Shown here: in pieces, positions 14,862 through 60,080 of the stretch
How positions within the stretch are numbered: the first letter of the stretch is position 1
Layout: each line of letters starts with the position of its first letter
NCBI GenBank assembly: GCA_024277375.1
Contig: JAJRVD010000027.1
Location: 19,063 to 83,062 of the forward strand
Reading direction: 5' to 3'
DNA length: 64,000 nt
Source of the DNA: Candidatus Omnitrophota bacterium
GTDB lineage: Bacteria > Omnitrophota > Gorgyraeia > Tantalellales > Tantalellaceae
Made by a program: the position numbers and the translations under genes
The notes under the pieces: generated by a model
The model's input: the letters and a program-made list of their open reading frames with translations, nothing else
The model's database searches: none
What the model was told of the DNA's origin: nothing

Positions 14862-16879
14862 AGAAATATTTGTTGCACGACGATAATGGTAAACTAGAGA
14901 CCCATATAGATTTCAAAGGGAGTCTTAACGATCAGCAGTATGAAGTTGTAACCGCCGCGGAAGGCCCATGTCTTGTTCTCGCCGGCGCGGGAAGCGGTAA
15001 GACCCGAACTCTCATATATCGCCTGGCATATCTTTTGGAACGTGGAATCCCCCCGGGTAATATTTTGCTTATGACCTTTACTAATAAGGCAGCGAGAGAG
15101 ATGCGCGAGCGCACTGAAATGCTTTTAAAGTACAGGCCCAAAGGGTTATGGAGCGGGACATTCCATCATGTGGGGAATAGATCTTTACGCGCGTACGCTC
15201 CCGAAGTTGGTTACGAACGAGACTTTGGTATACTTGACCAGCATGATTCCCGTGAGATTATTAAGTCATGTGTAAAAAAAATGCGTATTAGTCCGGGAAA
15301 AGAAAAGTTTCCTAAGCCGTCGGTGATACAGGCAGTAATAAGTCTCGCGACAAATACCCAAAGAATCACTAAAGAAGTCTTGGAGGATAGATTCCCGTAT
15401 CTATTGAAATTCGCGCCACAGATAAGCGCGATAAAAGATCTCTATGAAAAAAAGAAAGTTTCATCGGGGAACATGGATTATGACGATCTTCTTTCAAAAT
15501 GGAAATGGCTTCTGGAGAACGTAACTGAGGTAAGAAAAAGATATTCTGAGCAGTTTCGGTACATAATGGTAGATGAATATCAGGATACGAACTTTCTTCA
15601 AGCGGACATAATAAATATCCTTAGCGGTCACCACTGTAATTTATTGGCGGTAGGAGATGACGCCCAATCTATTTATTCATTTCGCGGTGCCCGAGTAGAG
15701 AATATACTACAGTTCCCAAAAAAGTTTAAGAGCGCCAAGGTCTTTAAACTGGAGATCAACTATCGTTCAACTCCCGAAATACTGGACTTGGCGAATGATT
15801 CTCTTTTAAATAATGAGAACCAGTTTGAAAAACAGCTTAAAGCGGTAAACCCGTCTATAGATAAGCCCGCGCTGGTCGAAGTAAGAGATCCTTATGCTCA
15901 GGCGAAATTCATCGCGCAGAGGGTAAAAGAAATGCGTGAAGAGGGTATTGAGATGAAAGATATCGCTGTTCTTTTCAGGGCGCATTATCAGTCAGCCGAG
16001 CTTGAAATGGAGCTTGTTAAGAGAGGAATGCCATATATTGTCCGAGGAGGAATACGCTTTTTTGAACAGGCTCATATCAAGGATGTATTGGCTTATTTGA
16101 AAATAGTCATTAATCCTATTGATGAAGTAGCCTGGATCCGGGCTCTTGTTCTGTGTCCTGGTATCGGACCGGGATATGCGGAGAAGATATATTCCGCTTT
16201 TTGCGGATCGGGCACTGATATTGCAAGATTTCTGAAAAGTGGTTTCGTGAATAATTTGCCCAAAAAAGCGCAGGATGGATACGGGCGATTTCAGAAGATA
16301 ATGCGCGCTATAATTTCTGAAGATGTCAACGGTGATACCGGGAGCATGATAGCAGCCGTATTGGACGCGGGGTATGAAACGCATCTTCAGGTAGCTTTCG
16401 AGAACGCGAAAGACCGCGTAGACGATATACATGAACTGATAAATTTTTCTCATGAATATGAGACATGCGCGGATTTTTTAAGTGATATAACGCTCAGGGA
16501 AGGATTTAGGGGAGAGATTGTTCAGGACGGGCAAGACGAAGAATAACAGCTTGTGCTTTCAACCATACATCAGGCAAAAGGTTTAGAGTGGAAGGCTGTT
16601 TTTGTGATAGGTCTTTGTGAAGGGCAGTTCCCGCATCCCAAGGCTTATGCGGAATCGGCGGAGATGGAAGAAGAGAGGCGTCTTTTTTATGTAGCGGCAA
16701 CCAGAGCGGAAGAATTTTTATACCTTATTCATCCCCGTACGCGTTATGACTATCAGCAGGGGACGGTAATAGCTCGCCAGAGCAGATTTCTTGAAGAATT
16801 GGATCCGGATGATTATGAGGTGTGGGAAGTGGGGTCGAATTCGTTCCCAAGCAACGAAGAAAGGACCATTGAGCTGTAA
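14858..16879 (+). CDS. uvrD: UvrD/PcrA-type ATP-dependent DNA helicase, interrupted by one in-frame TAA (16544-16546); possible pseudogene or readthrough
   Basis: Walker A LAGAGSGKTRTLIYRLAYLL and motif II MVDEYQDTN are present. The C-terminal piece (16553-16879) carries motif VI, LSTIHQAKGLEWKAVFVIGL...RRLFYVAATRAEEFLYL. Both parts are in the same frame and are separated only by TAA, CAG, CTT. The track splits the gene into 562-aa and 108-aa ORFs. Confidence 0.8.
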
Positions 16880-18044: not shown

Positions 18045-18060
18045 GAATAGGTAGGCTTGA

Positions 18061-18152
18061 TATATGAGGGGCCATACCGTGCTCAAACATGCGGAAGAAC
18101 AGAAGTATTATTCTGTTCTTCCGAACTGCGCGCGGTATGGCCCCTCATATAT
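18061..18152. repeat. Compound hairpin (20-bp outer stem atatatgaggggccataccg / cggtatggcccctcatatat enclosing an inner 11-bp hairpin)
   Basis: Outer arms at 18061-18080 and 18133-18152 are perfect inverted repeats. The inner segment ggaagaacagaa...ttctgttctcc also pairs. The motif ccgaactgcgcgcggta recurs at 48987-49003. Confidence 0.6.
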
Positions 18153-18240
18153 CAAGCCCTGGAATAGTAATGTTATCCTGAACGAAATGTTCGTAGGGCA
18201 TGAAGCTGAATGATTTCAATTGAAAGCTATTCTGTGGAGT

Positions 18241-18280
18241 GGGGGGACAGAGCCTTTTTGGGCAAAAAGGCTCTGTCCCC
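18241..18280. repeat. Palindromic repeat family A (GGGGACAG-N-CCTTTTTGGGCAAAAAGG-N-CTGTCCCC)
   Basis: A perfect hairpin with a roughly 17-bp stem. Related copies are at 18694-18733 and 55531-55590. Confidence 0.65.
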
Positions 18281-18451
18281 ATTTTAACTATAGATGTAGT
18301 GTGGGATGTTAAATGATTATAATAAAAGCACTTATGCTCAAAAGCCGTTAACATTCAAAAAGGTAGCCATGTGGCCTTGCTAATGTTGTTACTATTGGGT
18401 AACATATAAGTGCAAATAAAAGGTAGATAGGGGCTAAAGAATATATCTTTG

Positions 18452-18597
18452 TGGGGGCGCGGCATGCAGACTGTGTCGTAATTTGTTTCGCGGATGACCG
18501 CATACAACATATTGTAGGGGTTCGATTTATCGAACCCGATATAACGGGCTTGATGAATCAAGCCCCTACATTATGACACAGTCTGATGCCGTGCCCC
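18452..18597 (+). repeat. Family D structured repeat, copy 1. It is about 115 nt, with an outer stem cagactgtg/cacagtctg and two internal hairpins. It could be an ncRNA or a MITE.
   Basis: The core tgtgtcgtaat...gtaggggttcgatttatcgaacccgatataacgggcttgatgaatcaagcccctacattatgacacag is conserved in 4 copies. The outer stem pairs with a G-U wobble (tgtgtcgtaat / attatgacaca). The internal hairpins are ggttcgat..atcgaacc and gggcttga..tcaagccc. Confidence 0.7.
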
Positions 18598-18693
18598 TAC
18601 GGATGATTTTTTTTGCTCGGTTATTTCAAACATTTTAAAAGCATATGAGGTGCAGGCGATGAAACTGTCATTGAGAAGAGGAGCTAAGAGCAA

Positions 18694-18733
18694 GGGGGAC
18701 AGCCTCTTTTTGGCCAAAAAGAGGCTGTCCCCC
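18694..18733. repeat. Palindromic repeat family A copy (gggggacagcctctttttggccaaaaagaggctgtccccc)
   Basis: A perfect hairpin. It lies inside the first 35 codons of the six-frame ORF 18650, so the real start of the giant gene is probably downstream at 18755. Confidence 0.65.
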
Positions 18734-18754
18734 TTGCTACGTTGTTCGCTCGTG

Positions 18755-21700
18755 ATGACGGGGAAGGGTATTGCCTCGCTGGTCACTTTGATAGCTTTTG
18801 TATTAAATATTTTAGGCGCGGAAGTTATTAGTATAAAAGCATATGCCGCTATTTCCCCTGAAATAGCTTCTACCAATCCCGCTGAGTATAATTTTCTGAA
18901 TGTCGATTCTTTTACATTACCCAAATACCTTGGAACCATAAAAGATTTGTGGAAGTCTGCCTCCGGACGAGACACGGTTATTCATATCCAGGACGCTCAT
19001 TGTAACTATGCCGCGCAGGATACGATAGCTAAGATGATAGAACGTATCGATTCGGAGTACGATATAGACGTGATAAATCTTGAAGGCGGCGCGGAGGATT
19101 ATGACCTGTCTTTGTTTACCGATATTGAGGATAAGGGCGTAAGACAAAAAGTAGTCGACTATTTTATGAAGCTTGGCATGGTCTCCGGTGCCGAAAGCTT
19201 TGTTCTTAATAATCAGGATAAAGCAAAGTTATGGGGCGTCGAAGACGTGGATCTTTATTTTGACAACCTTAGCGCCTACCGGAATTCGCTGGAGTACAAG
19301 GAAGAAGTTGACGGGTATCTTAAAATGCTCAGCCGTTTGCTGAATGAACTTAAAATAAACGTTTATTCGAACGAACTTTTGGAGTTTGATCTTAAATATT
19401 CCGCTTACAAGGCGGGTAATCTGGCTTTCAGAGATTATGTGATCTATATTCGTGATAAGGCCGCGAAATGTGCTATCGACATGGAGGAGTTTGAGAATAT
19501 TGCGTTATTGTCTGAGTCTCTTGAACTTGAGGGCAAAATTGATTTCAAAAAGGCCAATCGCGAGAGGGATATGCTCATAGAAGAGCTCCGGCGCATGGTC
19601 TCGAAAAACGAGCTTGAAAACCTGGTGCTCAAGACCTTACAGTTCAAGAAAAAGATAATTTCCCGGAAAGACTATTATACGTATCTTTTTGAAAAAGCGC
19701 GGCTTGTGAACATCGGCTTGGATGGGTTCGGCGAACTCAGGAAATACACTGACTATATCTCAAAGTATCAGACCGTTGATAGATCAAAGATATTAGAAGA
19801 AATGTCTATTATTGAGGATGCGATCAAGGATGTTCTATGCGTAAAAGATAAAGATCGTACGCTTGTCAGGTTGTCCAAGAATTTCGCGCTCCTAAAGAAC
19901 ATATTCAACGTCTCGCTCACAAAAGACGACTATGTGTATTACAAAACCAACGAACCCGCGTTCGCGGTGAAAAACTATATTTCATTCATTAAGGCTAACG
20001 ACTCATCATTGCGTGGAGCTGTGCCTTTCTCGCCGTTGCGAGGAGCCGACCTATCCTCTGTCATTGCGAGCCCGCCGAAGGCGGGAGAAGCAATCTCTGA
20101 AAACATCTATAATCTCGACCGCCACCGCGAACAAATATCCCGTTTTTACGAAGATGGCATCAAGCGTGACGATGCATTCTTGCGCAACCTCAGGTTTCAA
20201 CGTAAGCAGGGAGTAGGAAGCAGGGAGCAGGGTGTCGTAGGAGAGGCCTCTAGCCGTGAACAAAAAACGACAATTTTAGTTACCGGCGGATTTCACACCA
20301 AAAATTTATGCGAGCTGTTTAAAGAGAAAGGTATCTCCTACGTTTCTATCATGCCTAACTTCCGGAATGAGAATGGTTATGAAAGCCCGTATTTTAACCT
20401 TCTCGCTGGTAAGAAAAATGATGTAGCCGCGGCGCTTACAAGTGATATATCTTCGTTGGCGTTATATTCTGATTTATTGCAGAACGGTCTAAACAATGGA
20501 GATTTTACCTCGAATGTTAAAGCGGTTAGAAGGTTGTGGGTAAGTCTGGTTGCCGCTCAGATCAGGAAAAACGGGAGAAATGTCATATTCGGAGATATTA
20601 ATGGTCGTTATAGACGCTATTCATTCAACTCCGAAGATGGTGATCCTGTAGCGGGACTTACAATAAACGGAAAACAGGTATACGCAAGGAATTTTGGTGG
20701 GGAAAGATCCCTTCAGGCTGAAGCGAAGGCATTATATGAGGAAATTTCCAGAGATATTGTATCCTTTGCCGCGGAAAGAGAGGAGATAAAGTCCGCGGTT
20801 GTCAGGTTAAGAGAGATCTTTAGTACTTTTCCCGACGTTGTTATCTCTGAAGTGAGAAATTTCTGGGAAAATGAAAAAGAAAGCACCGGAAATGTTTTCA
20901 GAGCTGTCGAGTTCTTTGATCTGATGCCCGAGATAATGCTTAATGCGAAAGTAGAGCGGTTGAAAGAAGCGGCGTTGAGTTTTGTCGACCGTCAACTGGA
21001 ACATATTTTTGACAGAGAAAACGCGGTGGCCATATATAACGAGATAATATCTACCGACGAAGGTATTCCTCAAGACCTGCTCAAATACGCTTTGTACTAC
21101 AGGAATCTAAAGGAGGGTAAAACTCTTACGGATGAGCAGTTGGCCCTGCATGGCCTCAGCAGCAAAGAGGACTTCCCATATTCCCTCGAGGTCGATCGTG
21201 TCTTAAAACACAAGGATGATAGTAATCCTAAAAAACTTTTGCTTATTTATAATGCTGAACATACCAGTATGGTAGGGATGGGAGACCAGATATCAAATGT
21301 GGTTCCCCTGGTTCAGGCACTTAAGGATAAATATCCCAAGTTGGACATAACCATATATACGGATAAACCCTTTGTGTATGAGGCTCATGACAATGTCCGT
21401 GTATTTAGCATGTCTTCTCCCGGAATAAATGCCGAAGAGGTTTTTGATATGGCGATCGATTATTCGGACAGTAAGAGTCGAGAGGAATATCCGGATAAAT
21501 ATTTAGTTCAAGAAGCGCAGATCTCTATTGTAGGGGATTTCAATAATTTAACAGTTAAGGCTAAGGGGTTACCGCCTTTGGGCATAAAAGTTCGTAATCG
21601 AAGTAATGCATATTCATTAAGCTTACGGTTATGTGCCGAATTGAGACTTCCTGTCAGGATAGGAACAGAACAACCTCAGACAAGTTCGATAGTTCTTGGC

Positions 21701-24700
21701 CCGGGTAGTGAGGAAGCCGATATGTGGTGGGAGGAAAATGTAGTATTGAAAAACACAGAAAAGAGAAAAGTCGTATTTTTGAATCCGTATGGAGGGGAAT
21801 GGAAGGAAAAGGGATACATTTATAACGATAGGCTAGTCAAGGATATAGAAGCCCTTCTTGAAGACGGAAACTATATTGTTATATCTCCAAATGACACTCG
21901 TTGGGGTACTCGTGAAAAAATCGAAGAAATGCTGAAACTATTAGATGCAGCAAAACAAAAATACATTACTATTTCAAAGGGTCCGTCAGAGGCTGGAAAT
22001 TTAATAAAACATTGGTTATATAGGGCTGATCATATTGTCACGGTTGAGGGTGGTACCGCGCATTTGGCCTACAATTTGGGTAAAACATTTACGCTTGTCT
22101 GGAAAAGAGGCGCGGGATTACTACATGATATCCCGCCTATGTGCGATCTTGGTCAGGAGTTAATCCCGATAGGAGGTAAACCGCAGGATATAGTGGATGC
22201 TGTTAAAAGAGCTTTTGAGAGTGACGATGAAGGCTCAAAAGTTACTAGTATCGGAACCGGAATTTTGCGAAAAACAAAAACAGTACTATCCGGTCTTTTG
22301 GTCTTTCTTGCCGGATCTTCAGCTTTGCAAATACTTTTGGCGGGCGATCTCTTCGCGGCGACGCCGGATGCGATTATGCAGGCTACTGCGACGCCGTGGG
22401 GCTGGATTGCAGTAGTGGTGGTTGCGGGTTTTATTGTGTATAGGTATTTTGCGATGTCTGCAGAAAGAATGGGTACAAAAGTTATTCCATTGGGAATAGC
22501 AGGTTTGATCTTTATGGGGGTTCAATGTAGCTATGCAGCCGCGTTGTCTCCACGTGAGGGTAAAACAAAAATATTAGTTTCATCTGCTGAGTTTCAGGAA
22601 AAACAGCAGCAGATCCGAGAAATGATAAAAGGGCTTGCGGATAGCGAAGAACATCTTTCAGGGAAAGAAAGGGAGTTGCTTGAAGGAATATTAAGTCTTA
22701 TCGAGGATGGAGATATCAAGATTAAATATGATCCTGAAAGGAATTATGCGTATGCCGATAAAGAGAATAAAGAAGTCGGGTTGCCTGAGAGTAGCTTCAT
22801 GGACAGGTATCGATTGGCGAGTGCCATAATTCATGAATTATTACATCAGCTATGCGCGAAACGTAATATCGATTTTTCAGATAAGATTAAAACGAGTGGG
22901 TTTAATGATTCAAATGATTATTGGCAATGGCTTGATCCCGGGGAGGAAGGATGGGTGCTCCGAAATACCATGATGATCATGAATCAAATCCCGATGGAAG
23001 CATTAGGCCTGAAACTGCTACTTGCGGAAGTCCCAAATCAAGAATCTTTCAATACTCAGATATTGACATATGATAACGAACCCATTACGAATGTTGACAG
23101 AATTATAGAATTGGCAAAAGATCCGGAAATGGTTATGGAAAAAAGAAGATTTCTGGTGAAGTTGTTACCTCTCATAAGCCTTAATATCGCGGAAAAAGTC
23201 GGAAACACCGGGATCATAAGGCCAGTTGACGCGGAAACCTCAAAAGAGGCAGAAGAGGCTTTGCTGGCTTTGAAAAAGTATTATGAGAGCGAACAAAATA
23301 TATTAGCAACGAAACATAAAATCCTGAAAAACAATAAGAAGAGACCCAAGCTGGTTAATGGGGCGGTCCGTCTGTCCTGGAAAGATCCCTCCAAGCTAAC
23401 ATCAGAAGATAAAGATCTCGTTGAATGGTGGTCAAATGTTAAATTGCTGGAAACGATAGAGCTATCAAGAAGGATGCTTAACGAGAGCAAGGTAAGTGTA
23501 GATAAAAAGTTAGATGAGTTTACTGTCCTAATAGTGGATGGGATCAAGCGTGAAATGAAGGTATCTGATTTGAGAATAGGGATGGCACGTATGTTGTATG
23601 GGAGTGAAGAAAAACTCGTAAAAGATGTCTTGAGGGAGTTGAAGCCTTGGGAAATCGACCTGATCGTGTATTACCAAAAAGAGATAAGGATCAAGCTAAA
23701 ACAGACTATTTCATATTATGAGGGAAGAGAGTTTGAGTTTAATAAGAACAACTTAACGGGAGCAATTAGCACGATAATGATGTCGCTTTTGCGGGATGTC
23801 TCAAAAACCGAGTATAACAGCATTTATGATCATAATAATCGTGGCCTTAAATGGGATGACCCGGGACGGTGGCATGGGCTCACGTTTGATGATAGATGGT
23901 ATGAGATCGGCAACCTGAATGGTTTATCATATAATTACTATAACGAACATCGTAAAAATGAAACAGAGGAAGAAAAGTACAAAGCTGATAATCCAAACAG
24001 GCCGAAAAATTTCGTTAACAATAACGCGACAAAAGGGTTTCGCGTGGATATGAGGGAGACATATTTATTCATGCGCTTCTATCCTGAAGAACTAGCTAAG
24101 ATCGTTAAGAAGGACAGAGGTGTAGCCGCAAAAGTAGAATTATTGGAAGAATATATGGGCAAATTGAAGCGGAATGTTAATAAAACAGCAAAATGGAGAG
24201 GAGACAGACAAAAAAAGAAAGAGAGTGAAAAGACATCAGACGGTATCAATACACTTAAAGGAATAATGGCTTTCGCGATAGCCCTGCCGCTTGTGCAGAT
24301 GCTTTTGGCGGGCGATCTCTTCGCGGCGACACCGGGGGTGCTTGTGCCCTCGATATTTAACTCGTTTAATGTTATAGGGTTCTTGTTAACGGTGGTGTGC
24401 TTAGGTTTAGCCGGGCTTATTCTTTATTATGATACCAATGATGCGGACGAATGGGATGATATCCCAGAGAGTGAGTCGATAAGGGCCTGGCAGGTTCTCT
24501 TAGGAGGGCGTGAGTGGGAAAAGATGGGGAAAGAATTCACTGACCGCTTAGCGATCTTGACCCCACAGGAGAGTGAGAACCGAACACTTCTTTTTGAGTT
24601 TTTGGAGAGATTCGGAAGAAAAGATTTACTCGCCCATATCAAGAGAAAACCGGATGAATTTTTGCCTGTTCTTGAGCATTTGAGGGGTAGTGAATTCATT

Positions 24701-27700
24701 TCAGGATACTTTGGAGAATTACTATATAGGGTAGACCGGTCGGGGGAGAAAGAACAGGAATTGCTGGATCTTGACTTGAAGACAGAACCATTGAAGGTAT
24801 GGGAATTGATAGATATTCTCATTGAAGTTGATTCATTTCAGCAAGATCTATACGAGTTCCTGACAAAAGATACCGCATATTCGGCAATACCCGGACAACA
24901 GTATTTGCCGCTTAATGTGAATGTCGTAAATGTTGTAGGGCAGATGGTTGAAGAAACGAGAAGTGCAAATCGGGTGAATATAAGGGGCAATCTTATCGCG
25001 ATAAGCGGGCAATTCCCCGGATATTATGCCGCTATTTGCGATTCTATTCTGAGGAATCCTGCCAGGATTCTAGAATTTGACATTGCCCCGGAAGTTGTAG
25101 AAAGAAATCTAAAATTTCTTCAACCTGAAAATTCCAAAGATCATATAACCTCTTTTGAGGGGTTTGTGGCGTTTCTGAAGAGGGAAAGTAAAGTTACCGA
25201 TAATATGGGGAAATCACCCATTGGTAAAGGTGTTCTGGATATATCGAAACGTGTTTTTAAATTCTTCGGCAAGGAAATAACTCCGGTTGTTGAAAATACA
25301 TGGATCCCGGTATTTGAAGAACTTGTGATGTTTTTGGTTTTGGCGGGCGGATATTTGGGCGGGTTATTCGTTCTTTCCGCACTGCCGTATATCCTCACCA
25401 GAATTATATTTACCGCATGGCACCTGAAAAACGAAAGTGGCACCTGGTTGCAGAAAATGCTTGTGCCGGGCATCGCGTCTGTGTTTGCGCTTATACCGGT
25501 GATGGCGGTTTTGGTATTGCCGGCGGTGTCCGCAGAGTTAATGTTAGCGGCGGCATTGGCTTTGGGAACCGGAACACATGTGCTAGGAAACCGGAGAGTA
25601 CACAAAAAGCGGATGGATGCATTTAAGCGTATCTTCGAAGAGAAAAAAGAAACTCTCGTTAAACAGGTAAGTGATGAAGAATTATTGGATGAATTTATCG
25701 GATATCTAGATGTGAATGTCAAAGAACTATTCGGGATCGGATTGCTTCTTGAGATAAGAGAGTTCTCTAAGTCTATACCTTTATCCAGAGATGAACAAAC
25801 TCGTCGCGGAAGACAAAGGGCGATTCTTTTAATGGCCGGGTTGAATGTCAGCGAAACGGAGTTGTACAAAGAAAATCAAAGAAAGATCGAGGAAGAACGC
25901 GTAATAGCGGAAGATCTAAATGGTATGGAAAATATTCATGATCTGATAGAGGGAAAGTTTGTTACGGTAAAACAGCTGAAAAGGGCCATAGAACTGTCCG
26001 CTGGGAACATAACCTCAGCGCTTGAAACATTAAATAAACTGAAAGACGTTATTAAAAAACACGGTATCGATGAGCTGTTTGAATTAGCCGATTTGGAGCG
26101 CGTATCCAATAATGTTCCGTGGAATTGTTTTGAATGGGTTGATTATGATTCCGCGCGAGATTTATTGGATCAATACGGCATCAAGCCATTTCTCAAAATG
26201 AGACGTTTGGGAGTAGGAGAATATTCATATCGTTCCATAGATTCTTATTCTCTGACGCTTCGGGGCATATTTAATTTGGTTAGGGACATGAGAGATGGGG
26301 ATATCAGTGAGAGATATGGGATAAGTGTTACCGGTTCTAATGTCGAGAAAATAACCATCAACATCATCAAAGAAAAGATATCGCTAAAAGGGCCGTCCAG
26401 TTTGCCTGTTAACATGTTCCCGGAAGATGAGATCGAATTTTTAGAAAAAAGTCATGAGGATACATACCGGCGTGAGAGCGAAAAAAACATGGATCGTTAT
26501 CTGAACAGGGAAAAACATAAAAAAGCGATATTGTCGTATATGCTGCTTTGCGAACGTTACGGCCCGGATAACATTAGGCGTCTTGTGCGGGATAACGTGC
26601 TGGAGAAGTGGAGCGAAAAAGTAGAGTCAATTAAAGACCAGTTGAGAGATCTAAAATCCGTGATCGACTTGCCGAGTGTCGGGATAGAACCGTTTGTTGA
26701 GTTTTCCGGAGGGAATGAAGACGGGCTTTGGCCGCTGACATTTATTGAAAAAGAAAAATGGGCACAATTTCTTACGTCGATACTAATTCAAAGAGGAGAT
26801 GTCACCGCGAAAAATAAAAGGCTCAGCGATCTTTATATCAACAATATGCTCGCTTCGGTAGGGAACAATATTGTTCCGAATGTGTCTATGATCAATGTTA
26901 TCGCGGAACTCCTTACACATAACGCGCAAAGCGGGGTACATCCCGTAGAGAGTTTTTTGCTTTCCGCGCTTGGTGAAGCGGGATTAAACAAGGGTTCAAT
27001 AGAAAAAATCTTAGAATATCTGGCGAAGAACAAAAAAAGTGAGATAAAAAGGTCGCAAATTATACGGGCCTTAGCCGGTATATATTGGGGATTTAAGTAT
27101 GAACGCTTTTCGGCGGGAACAATAGATACGCGAATGATAAACGCTATTATCGAGACGGAAGACACTCGCCGATTAAGCGCGGCGCTGAATTTTATCCCCG
27201 CGTTAATTGATCTTCTCGAGTCGGGAATACTTGCCAAAGAAGAGATCGAAACCGGGACAAGATCGGGAAATATAGTTGACAAAATCGGAGGGTTATTGAA
27301 AAGTAAGATTGAAGAAACATTTAGTATAAAGATCAGTGATACCGATTTGGAGGTACAGGCGGCTCTTTCCGACACGTATTTTCTGGCGGATTTATTCAGT
27401 TTTCGAAGAAAGTATAAGGAAGAAGACGAAAACGCCTATAAGATATTCCTGGGATTGGTCAAAGCGTATTTTGAGAACGGCAGTAAAGGTGTGAGAGAAT
27501 ATAAAAACTCAAATGAGCTTGTCAATGTACAAATCCCTGAAAGGATAAAGGAGAAAGGATTTGAACAACTTTCGCGCCTCAGGACGTTCGCGCGGTCGGG
27601 GGAAGGTGAAGAGATGAGTGTATTTGACCGACTATTTAAAACAACATTAAGAAATTATGATGAGCATTCTAAGGAAATGAAATTTGATCCCGGTTCGATC

Positions 27701-29623
27701 AGCGCGGCGTCAACGGAAGAAATAAGTAACTTTGAGAAGAGTATAGAGGAGTTTCGCGGGGGAATAAGTAACATTGAATTAAAGAAAGCTGTAGAGCATG
27801 CTATAGCGTCGGGAGATACTAATACGTTAAAGAAGTTAGAAAATCTATCACGTCCGGATAAAAAGTCACGCGGATATGCTATCGGATCGATCGAAAAATT
27901 GTACGCGATGCGGCAAGAAGGTAGCGTGGTCGAAGCGGCTATGATAATCAAGAGCCTGCGCGGTATCAAAGATATTTCCGTCGGGGAACAGGAAAAAGAG
28001 CTCAGGACATTATATTCCTCCAGCAAAGAAAAGATTGAGGAGCTTATTCCGACATTGAGGTATATCCGCGGCAAAATGCAGGCTAAAAATAAACCCGTAG
28101 CGATAATTATAGGAGGAATGATTGGTTTATTGACAGGATTGGAAAAATTCTCAACAGGAAAGAGCGATATATTATCGGAGAAGAAAATCACGGCGGAAAT
28201 AAGTTTTGACCTGAAAGAGATCTTAAAAATAGGGCGTTACGGCGCCAGCGGCGAAGGTAATTGCCAGCATAGCAATAGTCCGGGTGAGAGCAACCATAGT
28301 TTAATGAGTTTTATAGGGGACGCTCATGAACTTATTATTCTGTTTAGAGATGATGACGGTATTGTCGTAGGGCAGGCGCTGATGCACGGAGTATACCTGG
28401 AGACCGGAGATTTTGTTTATATGAAAGAGGATGTTTACACTAATGATAATTCCCTGAAAGCGTTGATGGAAACCGCGGCAAGGAGAATGGGTAAGGCAAT
28501 AGCTAATTTTTACGGAATTAAAGTTTTAGATCCAGGGGCAGTCGAGAATAAAAAGATTTTTAATAACATAAAAATACCGCCAAGTAAGGTATTTCGTTAT
28601 TTAGACTCATTGGGCGGAGAAGTGTACACGTTTATGGAATCCATGCCGCTTGAAAAACCTTTATTGGCAGGGGTAGTTGAACCTATACACATTCGGGGCG
28701 GACGGGAAAGTAGCTATAGATTGTCTCCCATCGGCGGGATGTTGAGTGCGGATCAGCTGATCGCCCGTGCACAGGACCCTAAGATTTCTGCCGCGGAATT
28801 GGTCGGAAATCTGAAGCTGACCGGATTAGATCAAGCACATGTGGTTCAGGAGGCTTTGGCTGATCCGGAATATGCCGACAAGCTCAAAGAATTTAACAGG
28901 TTGCTTGCCAGGGCTCTGGGGGGAACCGAACTTGTCGAAAAGGCGAAAAGGGAGGAGAGGGAAGAAGCGATCGAAGATCGGCAGGCGGTGACGGTGGAGG
29001 TATTTGGGGAGGTTAACAGGAAAACCGATACGGTGAGAGCGGTTATAGGTGTTCCCAAAGGCATGCCGCAGAAAGTACTGCAGAAAATGCTTCGTGAAGT
29101 TAACAGAGGCCTTGCCAAAAATGGGTTTGGAGAGAGAAACGATACGCATCAGGTCATAGTGTTTGAAATGGATGCTGACAATAAAGATTTAACGGAAAGT
29201 AACCAGGCCGCGGCAGTAGAAAAAGCCCGGAAAGATCTATCCAAAAAAGGAATGATCGTTCTTTTTTCGCCCGAGACGGACAAGTTGCCGCTTGCGGAAC
29301 TCACGGTTGAAAAGTACAAGGATCAAGAAAATATTACTATTATCAGAGATGCTTATTCAGATTCCAAGCCGCAAGAAAAACAGTTCCTTGATGTTGATGT
29401 AAGGGCGGCACTCGCTAGGCATATAGCTTTTTATTATAACGGCAGTGATCAAGCATCCGCGATAAGCGCGATAAATGCTTTGATGAGGCAGATATCCGAT
29501 GAGCATAAGGACATATCGGATATAAACGAACTATTGGCCATGGTTGTTAGAATAAGGCCGATCGATTATGGGGAAATAACGCAGTGGGCCGAAGCGCAGA
29601 TAGCGACGGCAACGTCGCTGTAA
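18755..29623 (+). CDS. Giant (about 3620 aa) polytopic membrane multi-domain protein with an embedded GT9 (heptosyltransferase-like) domain
   Basis: A 10.9-kb open frame. The ATG at 18755 is the first start downstream of the family-A palindrome. An N-terminal TM helix is present. Region nt 18920-20450 carries IHIQDAHCNYAAQ and ILVTGGFHT, a weak resemblance to the TraB/GumN/ChaN fold. Region nt 21230-22110 matches the GT9 pattern: KKLLLIYNAEHTSMVGMGDQISNVVPLVQALKDKYPKLDITIYTD and ADHIVTVEGGTAHLAYNLGKTFTLVW. An HExxH motif (IIHELLHQL) is near nt 22835. There are two TM bundles, each beginning with the identical motif LLAGDLFAATP (nt 22339 and 24301). A further 4-helix TM bundle is near nt 25300-25600. 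Confidence 0.8.
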   Translation: MTGKGIASLVTLIAFVLNILGAEVISIKAYAAISPEIASTNPAEYNFLNVDSFTLPKYLGTIKDLWKSASGRDTVIHIQDAHCNYAAQDTIAKMIERIDSEYDIDVINLEGGAEDYDLSLFTDIEDKGVRQKVVDYFMKLGMVSGAESFVLNNQDKAKLWGVEDVDLYFDNLSAYRNSLEYKEEVDGYLKMLSRLLNELKINVYSNELLEFDLKYSAYKAGNLAFRDYVIYIRDKAAKCAIDMEEFENIALLSESLELEGKIDFKKANRERDMLIEELRRMVSKNELENLVLKTLQFKKKIISRKDYYTYLFEKARLVNIGLDGFGELRKYTDYISKYQTVDRSKILEEMSIIEDAIKDVLCVKDKDRTLVRLSKNFALLKNIFNVSLTKDDYVYYKTNEPAFAVKNYISFIKANDSSLRGAVPFSPLRGADLSSVIASPPKAGEAISENIYNLDRHREQISRFYEDGIKRDDAFLRNLRFQRKQGVGSREQGVVGEASSREQKTTILVTGGFHTKNLCELFKEKGISYVSIMPNFRNENGYESPYFNLLAGKKNDVAAALTSDISSLALYSDLLQNGLNNGDFTSNVKAVRRLWVSLVAAQIRKNGRNVIFGDINGRYRRYSFNSEDGDPVAGLTINGKQVYARNFGGERSLQAEAKALYEEISRDIVSFAAEREEIKSAVVRLREIFSTFPDVVISEVRNFWENEKESTGNVFRAVEFFDLMPEIMLNAKVERLKEAALSFVDRQLEHIFDRENAVAIYNEIISTDEGIPQDLLKYALYYRNLKEGKTLTDEQLALHGLSSKEDFPYSLEVDRVLKHKDDSNPKKLLLIYNAEHTSMVGMGDQISNVVPLVQALKDKYPKLDITIYTDKPFVYEAHDNVRVFSMSSPGINAEEVFDMAIDYSDSKSREEYPDKYLVQEAQISIVGDFNNLTVKAKGLPPLGIKVRNRSNAYSLSLRLCAELRLPVRIGTEQPQTSSIVLGPGSEEADMWWEENVVLKNTEKRKVVFLNPYGGEWKEKGYIYNDRLVKDIEALLEDGNYIVISPNDTRWGTREKIEEMLKLLDAAKQKYITISKGPSEAGNLIKHWLYRADHIVTVEGGTAHLAYNLGKTFTLVWKRGAGLLHDIPPMCDLGQELIPIGGKPQDIVDAVKRAFESDDEGSKVTSIGTGILRKTKTVLSGLLVFLAGSSALQILLAGDLFAATPDAIMQATATPWGWIAVVVVAGFIVYRYFAMSAERMGTKVIPLGIAGLIFMGVQCSYAAALSPREGKTKILVSSAEFQEKQQQIREMIKGLADSEEHLSGKERELLEGILSLIEDGDIKIKYDPERNYAYADKENKEVGLPESSFMDRYRLASAIIHELLHQLCAKRNIDFSDKIKTSGFNDSNDYWQWLDPGEEGWVLRNTMMIMNQIPMEALGLKLLLAEVPNQESFNTQILTYDNEPITNVDRIIELAKDPEMVMEKRRFLVKLLPLISLNIAEKVGNTGIIRPVDAETSKEAEEALLALKKYYESEQNILATKHKILKNNKKRPKLVNGAVRLSWKDPSKLTSEDKDLVEWWSNVKLLETIELSRRMLNESKVSVDKKLDEFTVLIVDGIKREMKVSDLRIGMARMLYGSEEKLVKDVLRELKPWEIDLIVYYQKEIRIKLKQTISYYEGREFEFNKNNLTGAISTIMMSLLRDVSKTEYNSIYDHNNRGLKWDDPGRWHGLTFDDRWYEIGNLNGLSYNYYNEHRKNETEEEKYKADNPNRPKNFVNNNATKGFRVDMRETYLFMRFYPEELAKIVKKDRGVAAKVELLEEYMGKLKRNVNKTAKWRGDRQKKKESEKTSDGINTLKGIMAFAIALPLVQMLLAGDLFAATPGVLVPSIFNSFNVIGFLLTVVCLGLAGLILYYDTNDADEWDDIPESESIRAWQVLLGGREWEKMGKEFTDRLAILTPQESENRTLLFEFLERFGRKDLLAHIKRKPDEFLPVLEHLRGSEFISGYFGELLYRVDRSGEKEQELLDLDLKTEPLKVWELIDILIEVDSFQQDLYEFLTKDTAYSAIPGQQYLPLNVNVVNVVGQMVEETRSANRVNIRGNLIAISGQFPGYYAAICDSILRNPARILEFDIAPEVVERNLKFLQPENSKDHITSFEGFVAFLKRESKVTDNMGKSPIGKGVLDISKRVFKFFGKEITPVVENTWIPVFEELVMFLVLAGGYLGGLFVLSALPYILTRIIFTAWHLKNESGTWLQKMLVPGIASVFALIPVMAVLVLPAVSAELMLAAALALGTGTHVLGNRRVHKKRMDAFKRIFEEKKETLVKQVSDEELLDEFIGYLDVNVKELFGIGLLLEIREFSKSIPLSRDEQTRRGRQRAILLMAGLNVSETELYKENQRKIEEERVIAEDLNGMENIHDLIEGKFVTVKQLKRAIELSAGNITSALETLNKLKDVIKKHGIDELFELADLERVSNNVPWNCFEWVDYDSARDLLDQYGIKPFLKMRRLGVGEYSYRSIDSYSLTLRGIFNLVRDMRDGDISERYGISVTGSNVEKITINIIKEKISLKGPSSLPVNMFPEDEIEFLEKSHEDTYRRESEKNMDRYLNREKHKKAILSYMLLCERYGPDNIRRLVRDNVLEKWSEKVESIKDQLRDLKSVIDLPSVGIEPFVEFSGGNEDGLWPLTFIEKEKWAQFLTSILIQRGDVTAKNKRLSDLYINNMLASVGNNIVPNVSMINVIAELLTHNAQSGVHPVESFLLSALGEAGLNKGSIEKILEYLAKNKKSEIKRSQIIRALAGIYWGFKYERFSAGTIDTRMINAIIETEDTRRLSAALNFIPALIDLLESGILAKEEIETGTRSGNIVDKIGGLLKSKIEETFSIKISDTDLEVQAALSDTYFLADLFSFRRKYKEEDENAYKIFLGLVKAYFENGSKGVREYKNSNELVNVQIPERIKEKGFEQLSRLRTFARSGEGEEMSVFDRLFKTTLRNYDEHSKEMKFDPGSISAASTEEISNFEKSIEEFRGGISNIELKKAVEHAIASGDTNTLKKLENLSRPDKKSRGYAIGSIEKLYAMRQEGSVVEAAMIIKSLRGIKDISVGEQEKELRTLYSSSKEKIEELIPTLRYIRGKMQAKNKPVAIIIGGMIGLLTGLEKFSTGKSDILSEKKITAEISFDLKEILKIGRYGASGEGNCQHSNSPGESNHSLMSFIGDAHELIILFRDDDGIVVGQALMHGVYLETGDFVYMKEDVYTNDNSLKALMETAARRMGKAIANFYGIKVLDPGAVENKKIFNNIKIPPSKVFRYLDSLGGEVYTFMESMPLEKPLLAGVVEPIHIRGGRESSYRLSPIGGMLSADQLIARAQDPKISAAELVGNLKLTGLDQAHVVQEALADPEYADKLKEFNRLLARALGGTELVEKAKREEREEAIEDRQAVTVEVFGEVNRKTDTVRAVIGVPKGMPQKVLQKMLREVNRGLAKNGFGERNDTHQVIVFEMDADNKDLTESNQAAAVEKARKDLSKKGMIVLFSPETDKLPLAELTVEKYKDQENITIIRDAYSDSKPQEKQFLDVDVRAALARHIAFYYNGSDQASAISAINALMRQISDEHKDISDINELLAMVVRIRPIDYGEITQWAEAQIATATSL

Positions 29624-33220: not shown

Positions 33221-33331
33221 TTGTGTCGTAATTCGTTTTGCGGACGCTCGCATGCAATATATCGTAGGGGTTTGATCCATAGAACCCGATATAACGGGCT
33301 TGATGAACCAAGCCCCTACATTATGACACAG
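33221..33331 (+). repeat. Family D structured repeat, copy 2
   Basis: ttgtgtcgtaattcgttttgcgg...gtaggggtttgatccatagaacccgatataacgggcttgatgaaccaagcccctacattatgacacag. It is 55 nt upstream of purH. Confidence 0.7.
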
Positions 33332-44528: not shown

Positions 44529-44872
44529 GGATATTCCAGGAAGATAAGAAAGTTCGAACGCCCCGGTAAAATGGAGAAGGTATCAGAAGCTAAGCTATCA
44601 GACTTGTTGGCGGAATTCGGGATCAAGAAAAACATACAAGATCATGACAAAATAAAAGCTATCAGTAAAATGCAGCGGATGAGAGAGGAACACACCGAAC
44701 ATTTGCTTGAGAAAAAAGATGAGAGTAGGTTTGATCAGATGCGTGATGATAAAAAAAATGACAGATCCTCGGGCGGCGGTCAGAAACACTAGGGTTAGAT
44801 TGGTCACACTGCCAAGTGGTCAATAAATAGGCTTGTGCAAAATGGAACTTTTGTTATTCAGGGTGTGTCGTA

Positions 44873-44977
44873 ATTCGTTTTGCGGATGACAGCATACAAC
44901 ATATTGTAGGGGTTCGATTCATCGAACCCGATATAACGGGCTTGATAAATCAAGCCCGTACATTATGACACAGTCTG
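44873..44977 (+). repeat. Family D structured repeat, copy 3
   Basis: gtgtgtcgtaattcgttttgcggatgacagcatacaacatattgtaggggttcgattcatcgaacccgatataacgggcttgataaatcaagcccgtacattatgacacagtctg. It lies between the two FecR-domain paralogues. Confidence 0.7.
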
Positions 44978-45030
44978 ATAAAAAACAGCGTTTCGCACAA
45001 GTCTAGTCAATGAATACAAAGGAGGGTGAT

Positions 45031-60065: not shown

Positions 60066-60080
60066 CGGATCCCCGTCTTT

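Follow-up and report, generated by a model that had tools for sequence, protein, structure and literature searches.

The giant gene in the 64,000-nucleotide stretch of DNA analysed here (the window) encodes one continuous protein of about 3,620-3,654 aa, and this protein belongs to an undescribed, Omnitrophota-only family in which a conserved N-terminal module (the head) and a conserved C-terminal module (the tail) bracket a variable middle. We infer that it is probably a modular protein of several enzymes that is exported or anchored in the envelope, a mid-sized counterpart of the Omnitrophota giants. A preliminary description had presented it as one contiguous membrane protein of giant size that lacks a characterised full-length homologue, and this is borne out; given its family, however, the protein is no isolated oddity.

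A single continuous reading frame

The reading frame runs without interruption from 18650 to 29623 on the + strand (3,657 codons counted from the GTG at 18650, stop included). Initiation at the GTG at 18755 gives the 3,622-aa product whose numbering is used for all residues. The candidate starts and the parts of the protein are as follows.

18659, +: candidate start ATG, preceded by GAGGTG at 18647-18652; start of the public gene call P0084
18755 and 18758, +: candidate starts GTG and ATG, respectively; 3,622 aa
18776..18850, +: N-terminal hydrophobic helix, aa 8-32, then AYA/A (sequence inspection)
18902..20434, +: family N-module (head), aa ~50-560; predicted TIKI/TraB/Ere/ChaN-fold alpha/beta core
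18992-19000, 19082-19084, 20165-20167 and 20294-20296, +: head residues D80-A-H82, E110, R471 and H514 (TGGFH), respectively; invariant, putatively catalytic
20465..21223, +: soluble linker, aa 571-823; poorly conserved, low-confidence prediction
21224..22129, +: very divergent GT9-like domain, aa 824-1125 (hhalign against E. coli GT9)
22280..22546, +: TM cluster 1, aa 1176-1264, three predicted helices (Kyte-Doolittle)
22592..23491, +: HExxH domain, aa ~1280-1579, containing HELLH (nt 22832-22846; phmmer, alignments)
23492..24262, +: basic soluble segment, aa 1580-1836; no relatives detected
24263..24430, +: TM cluster 2, aa 1837-1892, a hairpin of two helices, duplicated from helices 1 and 2 of cluster 1 or vice versa
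24431..25117, +: acidic soluble segment, aa 1893-2121; no relatives detected
25118..25651, +: cassette common to P0087, aa 2122-2299, 34% identity; contains TM cluster 3
aa 2186-2277, +: TM cluster 3, 3-4 helices (Kyte-Doolittle); a strongly basic stretch follows the cassette
25652..28855, +: orphan soluble region, aa 2300-3367; coding-like codon usage
28856..29620, +: family C-module (tail), aa 3368-3622; predicted flavodoxin/Rossmann-like alpha/beta fold with terminal helices

A protein of this kind might be an artefact, either of neighbouring genes fused by sequencing or assembly errors or of a decaying, non-functional frame. Errors or pseudogenes do occur in the window, where the uvrD gene next to the giant gene is interrupted by an in-frame TAA, and about 1,100 aa of the giant have no homologue anywhere. 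However, there are zero stops in the 3,657 codons at 42% GC, and in all 18 windows of 200 codons only the annotated frame has a positive codon-usage log-likelihood, both other frames being negative, with scores within the range of 20 reference genes from the same window. In addition, a public protein from an independent collection, P0084 (3,654 aa), matches with 100% identity across the 1,099 residues searched. The single 10.9-kb ORF of about 3,620 aa that had been described is thus borne out by the uninterrupted frame, its one-frame codon usage and the matching public call. Finally, rather than unrelated neighbours joined by missed stops, the two ends of the ORF are the N-module and C-module of one family, in the same frame and 10 kb apart, as is also seen in dozens of relatives of 1-5.8 kaa. 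The single coding frame, together with the family head and tail at its two ends, excludes fusion of neighbouring genes by missed stops, and the artefact reading is effectively refuted.

Fixed ends and an exchangeable middle

Searching with aa 4-570 of the giant matched at least 82 proteins, all from Omnitrophota, with E values down to 1e-145, and 516 family loci were found in GTDB species genomes. There are several paralogues per genome, the same MAG appearing for two or three proteins or loci. Members consist of a Sec-like signal or anchor, an N-module of ~510 aa, the variable middle and a C-module of ~255 aa that ends in the motif IRPIDYgEItqWaeAQiAtatSL-COOH. Their lengths run from roughly 935 aa to over 5,700 aa; complete ORFs at the loci span 983-3,997 aa, and others exceed 4,000 aa. 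The giant's tail matches an HMM of family C-termini at E=8e-27, and conserved tails are present in 39 complete locus ORFs. The tail is modelled by AF2 at pLDDT 60-89 and is nearly devoid of invariant residues across the family. Three long relatives, P0085, P0086 and P0087 (2,478, 5,313 and 5,782 aa, respectively), all carry the head; by BLAST the tail is matched in P0087 and weakly in P0085.

The syntenic positional orthologue, L061, differs substantially from the giant in length, at only 1,469 aa. The flanking genes are 56-75% identical between the two loci, while the head is 44% and the tail 47% identical, so that head and tail evolve faster than the genes around them. The middle of L061 (~710 aa) is unrelated to the ~2,800 aa of the giant, which give one match or none in 5.8e9 clusters and none in 78 related loci. 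The middle is therefore replaced and expanded quickly, and the family is phylum-restricted, vertically inherited and multi-paralogue, with conserved head and tail around a variable centre. Family genes lie at conserved positions among housekeeping genes, not in islands, in at least two lineages, and no secretion-system, chaperone or immunity partner gene was found to be conserved near family loci. In relatives the middle carries methyltransferase, GT2, GGDEF, SpoIIE, GNAT, macro and metallophosphoesterase domains, as well as cellulase, Ser/Thr kinase, PPDK, cNMP-binding and HATPase domains.

In the giant itself, much of the middle stands alone. No homologue of aa 2261-3400 was found in 5.8e9 clusters in a word-indexed search, and the orphan region (aa 2300-3367) has no match in the 78 related loci and none in Pfam or NCBIfam. 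More than 1,500 aa are without a recognisable relative, consistent with the more than 1,500 aa of motif-free soluble sequence that had been noted.

The head resembles the TIKI/TraB/Ere/ChaN superfamily

The AF2 model of the head (pLDDT 85-94) predicts a parallel-sheet alpha/beta core with flanking helices, split by a helical insertion of ~315 aa (aa 165-480). Foldseek ranked EreC first with this model, but at E=0.18. The quoted motifs VIHIQDAHCNYAAQ and ILVTGGFHT are present at aa 75-88 and 507-515, and D80-x-H82, E110, R471 and H514 are invariant across 34 family members. The TIKI-fold catalytic set consists of two His, two Glu and a conserved basic residue, exemplified by E3900, H3902, E3930, R4001 and H4030 of RRSP and by H85/E113 of Bcr135 (PMC6254334). 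The spacing from H82 to E110 is 28, equal to that in Bcr135 (H85/E113) and RRSP (H3902/E3930). Similarly, Arg and His lie 29 residues apart both in the L061 orthologue and in RRSP (R4001/H4030); a 14-aa insertion brings this distance to 43 in the giant.

Compared with Bcr135 (3B55/2RAD), EreC (6XCQ), ChaN (2G5G), HopBA1 (5T09) and RRSP (5W6L), the head thus shares the predicted parallel-sheet core and, with Bcr135 and RRSP, the acid-x-His...Glu...Arg...His pattern and its spacings, but it differs in four respects. It has Asp in place of the first Glu; its core carries the inserted helical domain; it is the N-terminal module of proteins of 1-6 kaa, paired with a fixed C-terminal module; and its sequence-profile similarity to the superfamily is undetectable. 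Indeed, the giant has no TraB/PrgY/GumN, erythromycin esterase or ChaN match in Pfam or NCBIfam at E<=1, the 34 family members give zero curated TIKI-superfamily matches at E<=10, and a PDB sequence search with the family head profile turns up no superfamily member. Because Pfam, NCBIfam and PDB profiles give no match, the homology rests on predicted structure and motif geometry, by which the head is predicted to have a TIKI/TraB/erythromycin-esterase/ChaN fold with its catalytic residues intact. Thus, of the weak TraB/GumN/ChaN-like character proposed earlier, the motifs hold and a predicted fold now accompanies them, while a curated profile match is lacking.

The ~315-aa helical insertion repeatedly drew Foldseek matches to alpha-pore-forming toxins of the ClyA family (AhlB, AhlC, SmhB, MakE and ClyA), all at non-significant E values.

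A very divergent GT9-like domain

Standard HMMs do not recognise the domain that had been called a convincing GT9: neither the excised domain nor its homologue P0083 matches Pfam at E<=10, the whole giant has no GT9 match in Pfam or NCBIfam, and there is no match to PDB sequences. The GT9 likeness is upheld by profile-profile comparison. P0083, at 27% identity, is the sole homologue in 5.8e9 clusters, and hhalign of the giant plus P0083 against E. coli WaaC, WaaF and WaaU gave a local score of 37.6 (P=1.7e-4) with very shallow profiles of 2 and 3 sequences. Both halves align collinearly (246 columns, query 13-301, WaaC 2-278, about 21% identity), and global mode gave a probability of 95%. None of 120 column shuffles reached this score (mean 14.2, sd 2.0, maximum 22.6), and the GT4 control was negative (P=0.3).

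The alignment pairs D844 (in GMGD), K1019 and E1098, all kept in P0083, with WaaC D13, K192 and D261, which we take to be catalytic and donor-binding residues of heptosyltransferase I; VTVEGGTAH (E1098, H1103) falls on D261 and the HL motif. Alignment confidence is modest for both pairings. On this alignment the domain would keep three features of WaaC/WaaF/WaaU, namely a GD motif near the N-terminus, a Lys in mid-domain and, towards the C-terminus, the (D/E)-x-G-x-x-HLA motif, but it differs from GT9 enzymes in having Glu at the D261 position and in being embedded in a 3.6-kaa protein, immediately ahead of a TM cluster. The AF2 model from the 2-sequence alignment has pLDDT mostly 25-50, with unreliable strand/helix alternation, and gave no significant Foldseek match. 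Taken together, the comparisons support the assignment of aa 824-1125 as a very divergent but specifically GT9-like domain.

If the giant were an ordinary LPS-core heptosyltransferase, or another envelope-biogenesis enzyme with fused accessory domains, the apparent retention of equivalents of D13, K192 and D261 would follow, and carbohydrate-metabolism genes (a GT4-PRK fusion and glycogen phosphorylase) do lie nearby. This reading is nevertheless very improbable: the GT9 HMM fails to recognise so divergent a domain, P0083 is its one homologue among 5.8e9 clusters, and it is missing from both the positional orthologue and the 78 related loci. From its absence at those loci we conclude that the domain is dispensable cargo and not conserved housekeeping.

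An HExxH domain shared with two relatives

The HELLH motif is present in a single copy (aa 1360-1364), as the preliminary description had it, and lies in a domain whose homologues by exhaustive phmmer are P0085 (2e-30) and P0086 (6e-23). NYA.AD, HExLH, WxWLxPGEEGWV and EKRxF are invariant in the giant, P0085 and P0086, the three sequences available; among these motifs, the invariant PGEEGW, 33-34 residues downstream of HExLH, offers a candidate third-ligand Glu. AF2 (pLDDT 65-89) predicts three short strands and then the HExxH helix. Foldseek returned no significant neighbour (LTA4H at E=0.69), Pfam returned WLM alone (E=0.12), and the PDB profile search returned BoNT/F alone (E=0.27). Both the GT9-like and the HExxH domains could be inactive relics.

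Membrane segments and the side on which the enzymes lie

By Kyte-Doolittle hydropathy only, the protein has the N-terminal hydrophobic segment at aa 8-32 and internal clusters at 1176-1264, 1837-1892 and 2186-2277, about 10 hydrophobic helices (about 9 internal) in 3,622 aa or roughly 1 per 360 aa. The N-terminal anchor and the minimum of three TM bundles proposed from the sequence were thus recovered. The proposed duplication of TM modules is real though small: LLAGDLFAATP occurs both in the initial helix pair of cluster 1 and in cluster 2, and BLAST of the giant against itself found no longer internal repeats.

The predictions disagree on which side of the membrane the head and GT9-like domain occupy. 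On inspection, family N-termini show a basic n-region followed by an h-region and then an AWA-like site, and that of the giant appears to be a Sec-like signal peptide or signal anchor. The positive-inside rule assigns aa 1265-1836, 1893-2185 and 2278-3622, including the tail, to the cytoplasm, and the basic RKTK ahead of TM cluster 1 suggests that the GT9-like domain is cytoplasmic as well. However, a classical N-in signal would place the head and the GT9-like domain outside the cytoplasm, opposed to the positive-inside assignment. Where minimal members lack internal TM helices, head and tail are bound to share one side.

These features bear on a rather unlikely alternative, in which the protein is a regulatory or metabolic scaffold tethered to the membrane, the helices serve only as anchors, and head, cargo and tail all face the cytoplasm, with a role in, for instance, the assembly of lipid-linked glycans and signalling. 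Basic residues lie on the cytoplasm-predicted sides of most TM clusters and before the junction of the GT9-like domain with cluster 1, and the GT9 enzymes WaaC and WaaF work on the membrane's cytoplasmic side. A nucleotide-sugar glycosyltransferase, or the ATP-, GTP- and SAM-dependent cargo of relatives, would make little sense away from a cytoplasm, which counts against an envelope-exported protein, and the cytoplasmic cofactors that the relatives' cargo needs speak for the scaffold. Moreover, Nielsen & Lui report that among long Omnitrophota proteins the most numerous class, at 46%, is TM-only and cytoplasm-facing (10.64898/2026.06.07.730766). Against the scaffold, family N-termini resemble cleavable signal peptides, with AWA or AYA after the helix, an orientation in which the part after it would be exported; the helix count of TM cluster 1 is odd, by crude prediction; and many members of 3.3-3.5 kaa are without any internal TM helix.

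In the exported or envelope-anchored multi-enzyme protein that we favour, the N-terminal signal would target the protein to the inner membrane, and the internal TM clusters would stitch it through the membrane, placing enzymatic modules on alternating faces. The head would be a putative hydrolase (peptidase or esterase), and the GT9-like and metallopeptidase-like cargo might modify glycoconjugates and proteins of the envelope or of partner cells. The fixed head and tail may provide targeting, processing or docking, with the middle as a lineage-specific payload.

Relation to Omnitrophota giants and to MARTX toxins

The favoured reading has its closest comparison in the same phylum. In the published accounts, a signal peptide, scattered TM helices and enzyme domains within dark sequence are the hallmark of long and giant Omnitrophota proteins (10.1101/2023.11.21.568195; 10.64898/2026.06.07.730766; PMC10066038), and those of at least 10 kaa are reported to contain methyltransferase, GNAT, HATPase, PPDK and glycosyltransferase domains (10.64898/2026.06.07.730766; 10.1101/2023.11.21.568195). 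The giant resembles these proteins ('Archaeovorins' and the multi-enzyme class; West-Roberts et al. 2023, Nielsen & Lui 2026, Seymour et al. 2023) in its Sec-like signal, in a TM density of ~1 per 360 residues against the published ~1 per 370 (10.64898/2026.06.07.730766), in isolated enzyme domains, glycosyltransferase-like and peptidase-like in the giant and methyltransferase, kinase, PPDK and GNAT in relatives, embedded in mostly unannotatable, sequence-unique polypeptide, and in the same paradox of cytoplasm-type enzymes predicted to be extracellular. It differs in size, 10.9 kb and 3.6 kaa falling under the published thresholds (>20-kb ORF, >=10,000 aa, >30,000 aa), and in content, being without SecA-DEAD, C39/S8 peptidase, dockerin, TSP3, HEAT, GT5 or GT1 domains (Pfam E<=1). 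The family here is defined instead by its predicted TIKI-fold head and its conserved tail, features not mentioned in the available text of those three reports; nor did a literature search joining Omnitrophota with TIKI, TraB or Ere find any mention of them.

The conserved ends and exchangeable centre also invite comparison with MARTX toxins and polymorphic toxins. In an unlikely reading as a secreted effector-delivery system, the signal peptide would export the protein, and the head, as a TIKI-type protease, and the tail would serve in processing, docking or translocation. The variable middle would be a payload active inside a host or prey cell, whose cytoplasm offers ATP, GTP, SAM and nucleotide sugars. 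Sec-like signal peptides throughout the family, cytoplasm-type cargo (kinase, PPDK, GGDEF, methyltransferases, GTs), a middle that is hypervariable between positional orthologues with head and tail that outpace the flanking genes, and the several paralogues per genome are all in keeping with it. Similarly, secreted toxin effectors (RRSP of MARTX, PMT and HopBA1) have the TIKI fold (PMC6254334), and it has been proposed that Omnitrophota, as predators or episymbionts, direct long proteins at partner cells (PMC10066038; 10.1101/2023.11.21.568195).

The likeness to MARTX is a functional analogy only: both are very long, with conserved termini and a variable, modular enzymatic centre, but the TIKI domain of RRSP is one of the MARTX effectors, whereas here it is the conserved head and not cargo. 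The giant is without internal or RTX-type repeats, a cysteine-protease autoprocessing domain (Pfam) or a T1SS signal or context, having a Sec-like signal and internal TM helices instead, and no linked transporter or other secretion genes were found in the window or the related loci. The roughly nine internal helices would keep it in the membrane of its producer, family genes sit among housekeeping genes with no immunity-like neighbour, and a tail with almost no invariant residues scarcely suggests a machine.

A bolder version, which we regard as speculative and improbable, is a cargo-carrying system in which a Sec-exported TIKI-type protease head and a C-terminal docking domain bracket swappable payloads (enzymes and membrane-inserting hairpins) that are processed and delivered or displayed to host or prey, and in which the same cassette accretion would have built the giants of 10-150 kaa. 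The non-significant ClyA-family matches of the head's helical insertion are a weak hint in this direction.

The enormous and mostly unannotatable membrane proteins of Omnitrophota, widespread ultra-small bacteria thought to be predators or episymbionts, are an open problem, and the giant gene exposes a tractable mid-size class with a fixed hydrolase-like head, a fixed tail and a freely exchangeable middle at hundreds of loci. The family may show how the phylum builds very long proteins: cassette gain and loss become directly accessible in positional orthologues with a difference of about 2,100 aa of unrelated sequence, the predicted catalytic site of the head is open to mutation and assay, and the catalogues of giants already published could be re-examined with a family HMM. 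Should the effector-delivery reading prove true, the family would represent a new secretion and payload architecture.

The region upstream of the gene

The gene is preceded by a region with four inverted-repeat structures, which is context outside the protein.

18045..18754, no strand: upstream region, 710 bp
18054-18158: inverted repeat 1
18243-18280: inverted repeat 2
18467-18585: inverted repeat 3, nested hairpins
18689-18738: inverted repeat 4, a perfect 50-nt palindrome

The four structured repeats noted earlier are indeed present, although they are not specific to the giant gene; they are copies of generic, dispersed palindromic elements that occur elsewhere in the window.

The giant is encoded by a single gene

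The long ORF that we call the giant is free of stop codons from 18650 to 29623 on the plus strand (3,657 codons), and amounts to 3,622 aa from the GTG codon at 18755, from which residues are numbered here. A 3,654-aa entry in a public protein collection, 100% identical to the giant across the 1,099 residues searched, implies a start at ATG 18659, with GAGGTG just before the ATG. A perfect 50-nt palindrome (18689-18738) sits between these two starts, and the further copies of this palindrome in the window all lie outside ORFs of ≥150 aa; thus, the start of the giant stays ambiguous between 18659 and 18755/18758. If the true start is ATG 18659, this copy of the palindrome falls within the coding sequence.

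Using a codon model derived from 20 other genes in the window, we scored the giant in 18 windows of 200 codons. The annotated frame is positive, with 0.10-0.22 per codon compared to 0.09-0.23 for the reference genes, while both alternative frames are negative in 18 of 18 windows. Since only the annotated frame scores positive, the giant is one coding unit with native codon usage, and it is encoded by one gene. The single contiguous ORF reported in the preliminary description is thus upheld, as it has no stop within 18650-29623 and one coding-like frame in 18/18 windows, and all of the motifs quoted there are found in the translation. An artefact in which neighbouring genes have been fused is essentially excluded by the same result.

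Conserved ends enclose a hypervariable middle

The whole giant matched nothing in Pfam or NCBIfam at E<0.1 and no PDB sequence. We searched it piecewise against a word-indexed database of 5.8e9 clusters and, for aa 1172-2270, by exhaustive phmmer against 1.84 billion representatives. The cluster search with aa 1-1172 returned at least 82 proteins, exclusively from Omnitrophota, with E-values as low as 1e-145; the matches are confined to aa ~4-570, and several of the proteins also align to aa ~3400-3622. Similarly, an HMM of family C-termini matched aa 3368-3622 (E=8e-27). We refer to these conserved modules as the head (aa ~50-560) and the tail (aa 3368-3622). The shortest complete family members have ~935-970 aa, and complete members end in the motif ...(L)(R/K)I(R/K)P(I/V)D(Y/W)xxIxxWxxAQxAVxx(S/A)(L/V)-COOH.

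Matches to the stretch between head and tail are scarce. Residues 640-1840 found one protein in the 5.8 billion clusters, P0083, which aligns to aa 824-1121, and aa 2261-3400 found none. The phmmer search with aa 1172-2270 recovered the giant itself and three other proteins: P0085 (2,478 aa) and P0086 (5,313 aa), which align to aa ~1280-1579, and P0087 (5,782 aa), which aligns to aa 2122-2299. All three carry the family head, and BLAST detects the tail in P0087 and, weakly, in P0085. Thus, the giant is a member of a family bookended by head and tail, with a ~2,800-aa middle that is almost unique; judged from these alignments, two cassettes of the middle are common to other family members.

The middle differs even at the same chromosomal position. 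The genes around the giant are ordinary chromosomal genes:

Giant gene and its neighbours, in order
10353-12245, minus strand: GT4-PRK fusion
glycogen phosphorylase (GlgP)
14858-16879, plus strand: UvrD/Rep helicase
NUDIX protein
HAD protein
18650/18755-29623, plus strand: giant
opposite strand: Era
MgtE
further on: PurH, MnmE and FolE

In L061, a syntenic locus from another GTDB species genome, the equivalents of GT4-PRK, GlgP, UvrD, NUDIX and HAD share 56-75% protein identity with those of the window and precede a family gene of 1,469 aa whose head and tail are 44% and 47% identical to those of the giant; head and tail therefore evolve faster than their housekeeping neighbours. The middle of this positional orthologue (~710 aa) contains no Pfam domain and has no similarity to the ~2,800-aa middle of the giant, and therefore the middle has been replaced outright. 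Indeed, the giant's middle had no match in any of 78 loci fetched from GTDB species genomes. We conclude that the middle is hypervariable.

These 78 loci belong to the 516 head-encoding loci that we found by a pattern search through one genome from each GTDB species. The closest relatives of the giant's head in GTDB are about 48-50% identical to it. Complete ORFs in the fetched loci range from 983 to 3,997 aa, with the tail motif at the end of most, and 11 further ORFs of >3,380 aa overrun the 10-kb flank. Two or three family proteins or loci can be named for one and the same MAG. Most family members have no Pfam domain; in those that do, the cargo includes methyltransferases, GT2, GGDEF, SpoIIE, GNAT, macro, metallophosphoesterase, cellulase, GlnD-type nucleotidyltransferase, Ser/Thr kinase + ABC1, PPDK, cNMP-binding and HATPase domains.

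The titles of the 78 listed loci (of 516) name Omnitrophota or, in TPA assemblies, 'uncultured Planctomycetia bacterium' (L002, L003, L016, L021, L032, L043, L047, L048, L050, L051, L056, L061, L074 and L076). Since the family otherwise occurs only in genomes labelled Omnitrophota, the latter title is probably a coarse or outdated label.

A second paralogue lineage occupies another conserved position, after ETF beta/alpha, acyl-CoA dehydrogenase, FabF, FabG, GT2, a MiaB-like radical SAM protein and RsmE (upstream 8 kb of L004, L010, L013, L014, L020, L022, L028 and L030). This lineage always lies behind the conserved housekeeping block, which marks the family genes as long established in the core chromosome rather than island cargo. 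We sought a conserved partner gene around the family loci and found none; their shared surroundings are housekeeping synteny only (ETF, acyl-CoA dehydrogenase, FabF/FabG, MiaB-like, RsmE). A processed, delivered effector carrier might likewise bear a hypervariable middle, and we consider such a carrier improbable; no secretion, chaperone or immunity gene recurs beside the family loci.

The head resembles TIKI-superfamily hydrolases

For AF2 modelling, head and tail were combined in an artificial construct that fuses aa 1-640 to 3300-3622 and mimics minimal members; the alignment comprised 34 sequences. The head (aa 50-560; pLDDT 85-94) is predicted to contain an alpha/beta core, whose strands lie at 60-66, 73-80, 106-109, 158-162, 504-511 and 528-534 and which is interrupted by a helical domain at aa 165-480. 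Construct residues 563-748 (linker and junction) are unstructured, and the model supports no claim of contact between head and tail.

Foldseek gave no significant match for the head in the PDB, with EreC ranked first and Bcr135 (two entries), ChaN and HopBA1 within the top 50. The structural neighbours (values in parentheses) are Bcr135 (9.7), HopBA1 (8.9), ChaN (8.6), a TraB-family protein (8.3) and Bcr136 (8.2), followed by EreC (7.9), RRSP (7.3) and PMT (6.4). These proteins have been grouped as the TIKI superfamily, with a catalytic set of 2His/2Glu and a basic residue, which is E3900, H3902, E3930, R4001 and H4030 in RRSP and includes H85/E113 in Bcr135 (PMC6254334). In the 34-sequence alignment, H77, Q79, D80, H82, E110, R471 and H514 are invariant. 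The H82-to-E110 spacing of 28 residues is identical to that in Bcr135 and RRSP; the R-to-H spacing in the L061 orthologue is 29 residues, as in RRSP, while the giant has a 14-aa insertion there.

TIKI-superfamily sequence models in Pfam and NCBIfam matched neither the giant nor the 34 family members, and the family profile found only low-complexity matches among PDB sequences. Given the fold model, the catalytic spacing and the lack of a model match, we take the head to be a putative TIKI-like hydrolase domain that existing families do not cover, with a predicted TIKI-like fold and catalytic motif. The TraB/GumN/ChaN-like character first guessed for this region is therefore borne out by predicted fold and residue spacing, with no sequence-model match.

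GT9-like and HExxH domains in the middle

A convincing GT9 domain had been proposed within the giant. Neither the excised domain nor its sole homologue, P0083, matched Pfam at E≤10. We compared profiles by hhalign, with E. coli K-12 WaaC, WaaF and WaaU as GT9 references and WaaG and WaaB as GT4 controls. Over 246 columns (query 13-301, WaaC 2-278), the giant + P0083 profile aligned to that of GT9 with a local score of 37.6 (P=1.7e-4) and a global-mode probability of 95%; the GT4 control, to which the GT4 domain of the window had been added, gave P=0.3, and shuffling the query columns 120 times gave scores of 14.2 ± 2.0 (maximum 22.6). In the GT9 alignment, GMGD(844) lies opposite WaaC GD(13), K1019 opposite K192, and VTVEGGTAHLA opposite VSVDTGLSHLT, with E1098 in place of D261. 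A PDB profile search with giant + P0083 matched only the HEAT repeats of P0083. The AF2 model of the GT9-like region is unreliable (pLDDT mostly 25-50), and Foldseek with the model of aa 800-1600, which is poor in this part, gave no significant match. Thus the GT9-like assignment stands by hhalign, above all 120 shuffles, and the word 'convincing' does not, given the Pfam result; we regard aa 824-1125 as a real, extremely divergent GT9-like domain, putative in both fold and activity.

Since the positional orthologue lacks this domain, it is lineage-specific cargo. The alignment to WaaC could also be read to mean that the giant is an ordinary LPS-core heptosyltransferase or envelope-biogenesis enzyme with fused accessory domains, which we consider very improbable. 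To deepen the GT9 profile comparison, we also ran tblastn with the E. coli GT9 enzymes; neither the window nor the 78 Omnitrophota loci yielded a GT9 gene.

The HELLH motif noted previously is present, and HExLH is conserved in P0085 and P0086; together with NYA.AD, WxWLxPGEEGWV and EKRxF, it is invariant in these three sequences. The model of this domain (pLDDT 65-89) places the HExxH helix after three short strands, a zincin-like layout. Family and fold searches gave nothing significant (WLM E=0.12, BoNT/F E=0.27, LTA4H E=0.69).

Topology and proposed mechanism

A Kyte-Doolittle scan places one helix at aa 8-32 and internal clusters at 1176-1264, 1837-1892 and 2186-2277, in agreement with the N-terminal anchor and at least three TM bundles described before. 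The string LLAGDLFAATP is common to clusters 1 and 2 of the giant and absent from other family members. Family N-termini are Sec-signal-like, with a basic n-region, a hydrophobic core and AWA or AYA, which would export the head. Basic stretches precede clusters 1 and 2 and follow cluster 3; their positions suggest a cytoplasmic location for aa 1265-1836, 1893-2185 and 2278-3622 and possibly for the GT9-like domain. The giant might then be a cytoplasm-facing tethered scaffold, which we think unlikely; the Sec-like N-terminus would place the head outside. In members that lack internal TM helices, head and tail must share one side. An even number of internal TM helices would keep head and tail on one side, but counts across the family from a crude hydropathy predictor (52 even versus 33 odd) show no informative parity.

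The tail (aa 3419-3622; pLDDT 60-89) is modelled as a beta-alpha repeat domain followed by helices, with weak structural neighbours among flavodoxin-like and Rossmann-like domains (PTS IIA, SIS, Argonaute MID). Apart from the terminal motif it has nearly no invariant residues, which would argue for a structural, docking or sorting role over catalysis.

We infer that the giant may be a modular protein, Sec-targeted and stitched through the membrane, in which the conserved head would act as a hydrolase, the conserved tail would be a docking or sorting module, and the middle would supply an exchangeable enzymatic payload directed at substrates of the envelope or of partner cells. We give a modest preference to the composite reading of one gene, a family member, a TIKI-like head, GT9-like and HExxH modules and this mechanism; the bulk of its uncertainty is in the mechanistic half.

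In about 10 helices across 3,622 aa, the giant resembles the published Omnitrophota giants on a smaller scale. Two of those reports describe the same contradiction, with cytoplasm-type enzymes predicted outside (West-Roberts et al., 10.1101/2023.11.21.568195; Nielsen & Lui, 10.64898/2026.06.07.730766). However, the giant is under the size cut-offs of the published studies and by Pfam lacks the SecA-DEAD, C39 and dockerin domains recurrent in them, and a TIKI-like head or conserved tail is mentioned neither in the consulted sections of these two papers nor in what term searches of Nielsen & Lui, of Seymour et al. (PMC10066038) and of the searched Omnitrophota literature returned.

In P0086, a hydrophobic stretch (aa ~2720-2750) ends in a lipobox-like LAGC directly before the HExxH domain. 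This hints that long family proteins could contain internal segments that are read as signal-peptide-like or lipoprotein-like sequences.

Dispersed repeats and neighbouring genes

Two palindromic elements recur in the window:

~116-nt structured element, copies 88-95% identical
18472-18587
33222-33331
44864-44979
60080-60154 (inverted)
Near-perfect palindrome of 38-50 nt (GGGGACAG..CTGTCCCC)
18243-18280
18689-18738
55535-55586

ORFs of ≥150 aa are absent from the stretches that hold the four copies of the ~116-nt element, which resembles a dispersed repeat of the REP/MITE type. The hairpin into which the giant's upstream copy folds is long (146 nt, -89 kcal/mol, z = -12.7). An Rfam search of the upstream repeats gave no family match and only sub-threshold hairpin look-alikes. 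As these elements are dispersed through the window, we reject the upstream repeats as giant-specific regulators.

The window also contains tRNAs. The uvrD gene has an in-frame TAA (16544-16546) that breaks it into two ORFs sharing one frame (562 aa and 108 aa), and the L061 uvrD is unbroken (692 aa, 70% identical); the TAA reflects a nonsense mutation, a pseudogene or a sequencing error. The GT4-PRK fusion (630 aa), which adjoins glycogen phosphorylase and is kept in L061, carries a phosphoribulokinase/uridine-kinase-family domain at its N-terminus and, fused to it, a GT4 glycosyltransferase whose first GT-B domain is sucrose-synthase-like. A 1,460-aa ORF (494-4876, plus strand) with a signal-peptide-like N-terminus has no Pfam domain, nor do the ORFs that come next (4922-5728 and 5729-6607). 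In two of the fetched loci, L032 and L066, homologues of the 1,460-aa ORF lie directly beside bookended-family genes (tblastn E down to 1e-23); the ORF may represent a second family of 'dark' exported proteins specific to Omnitrophota.
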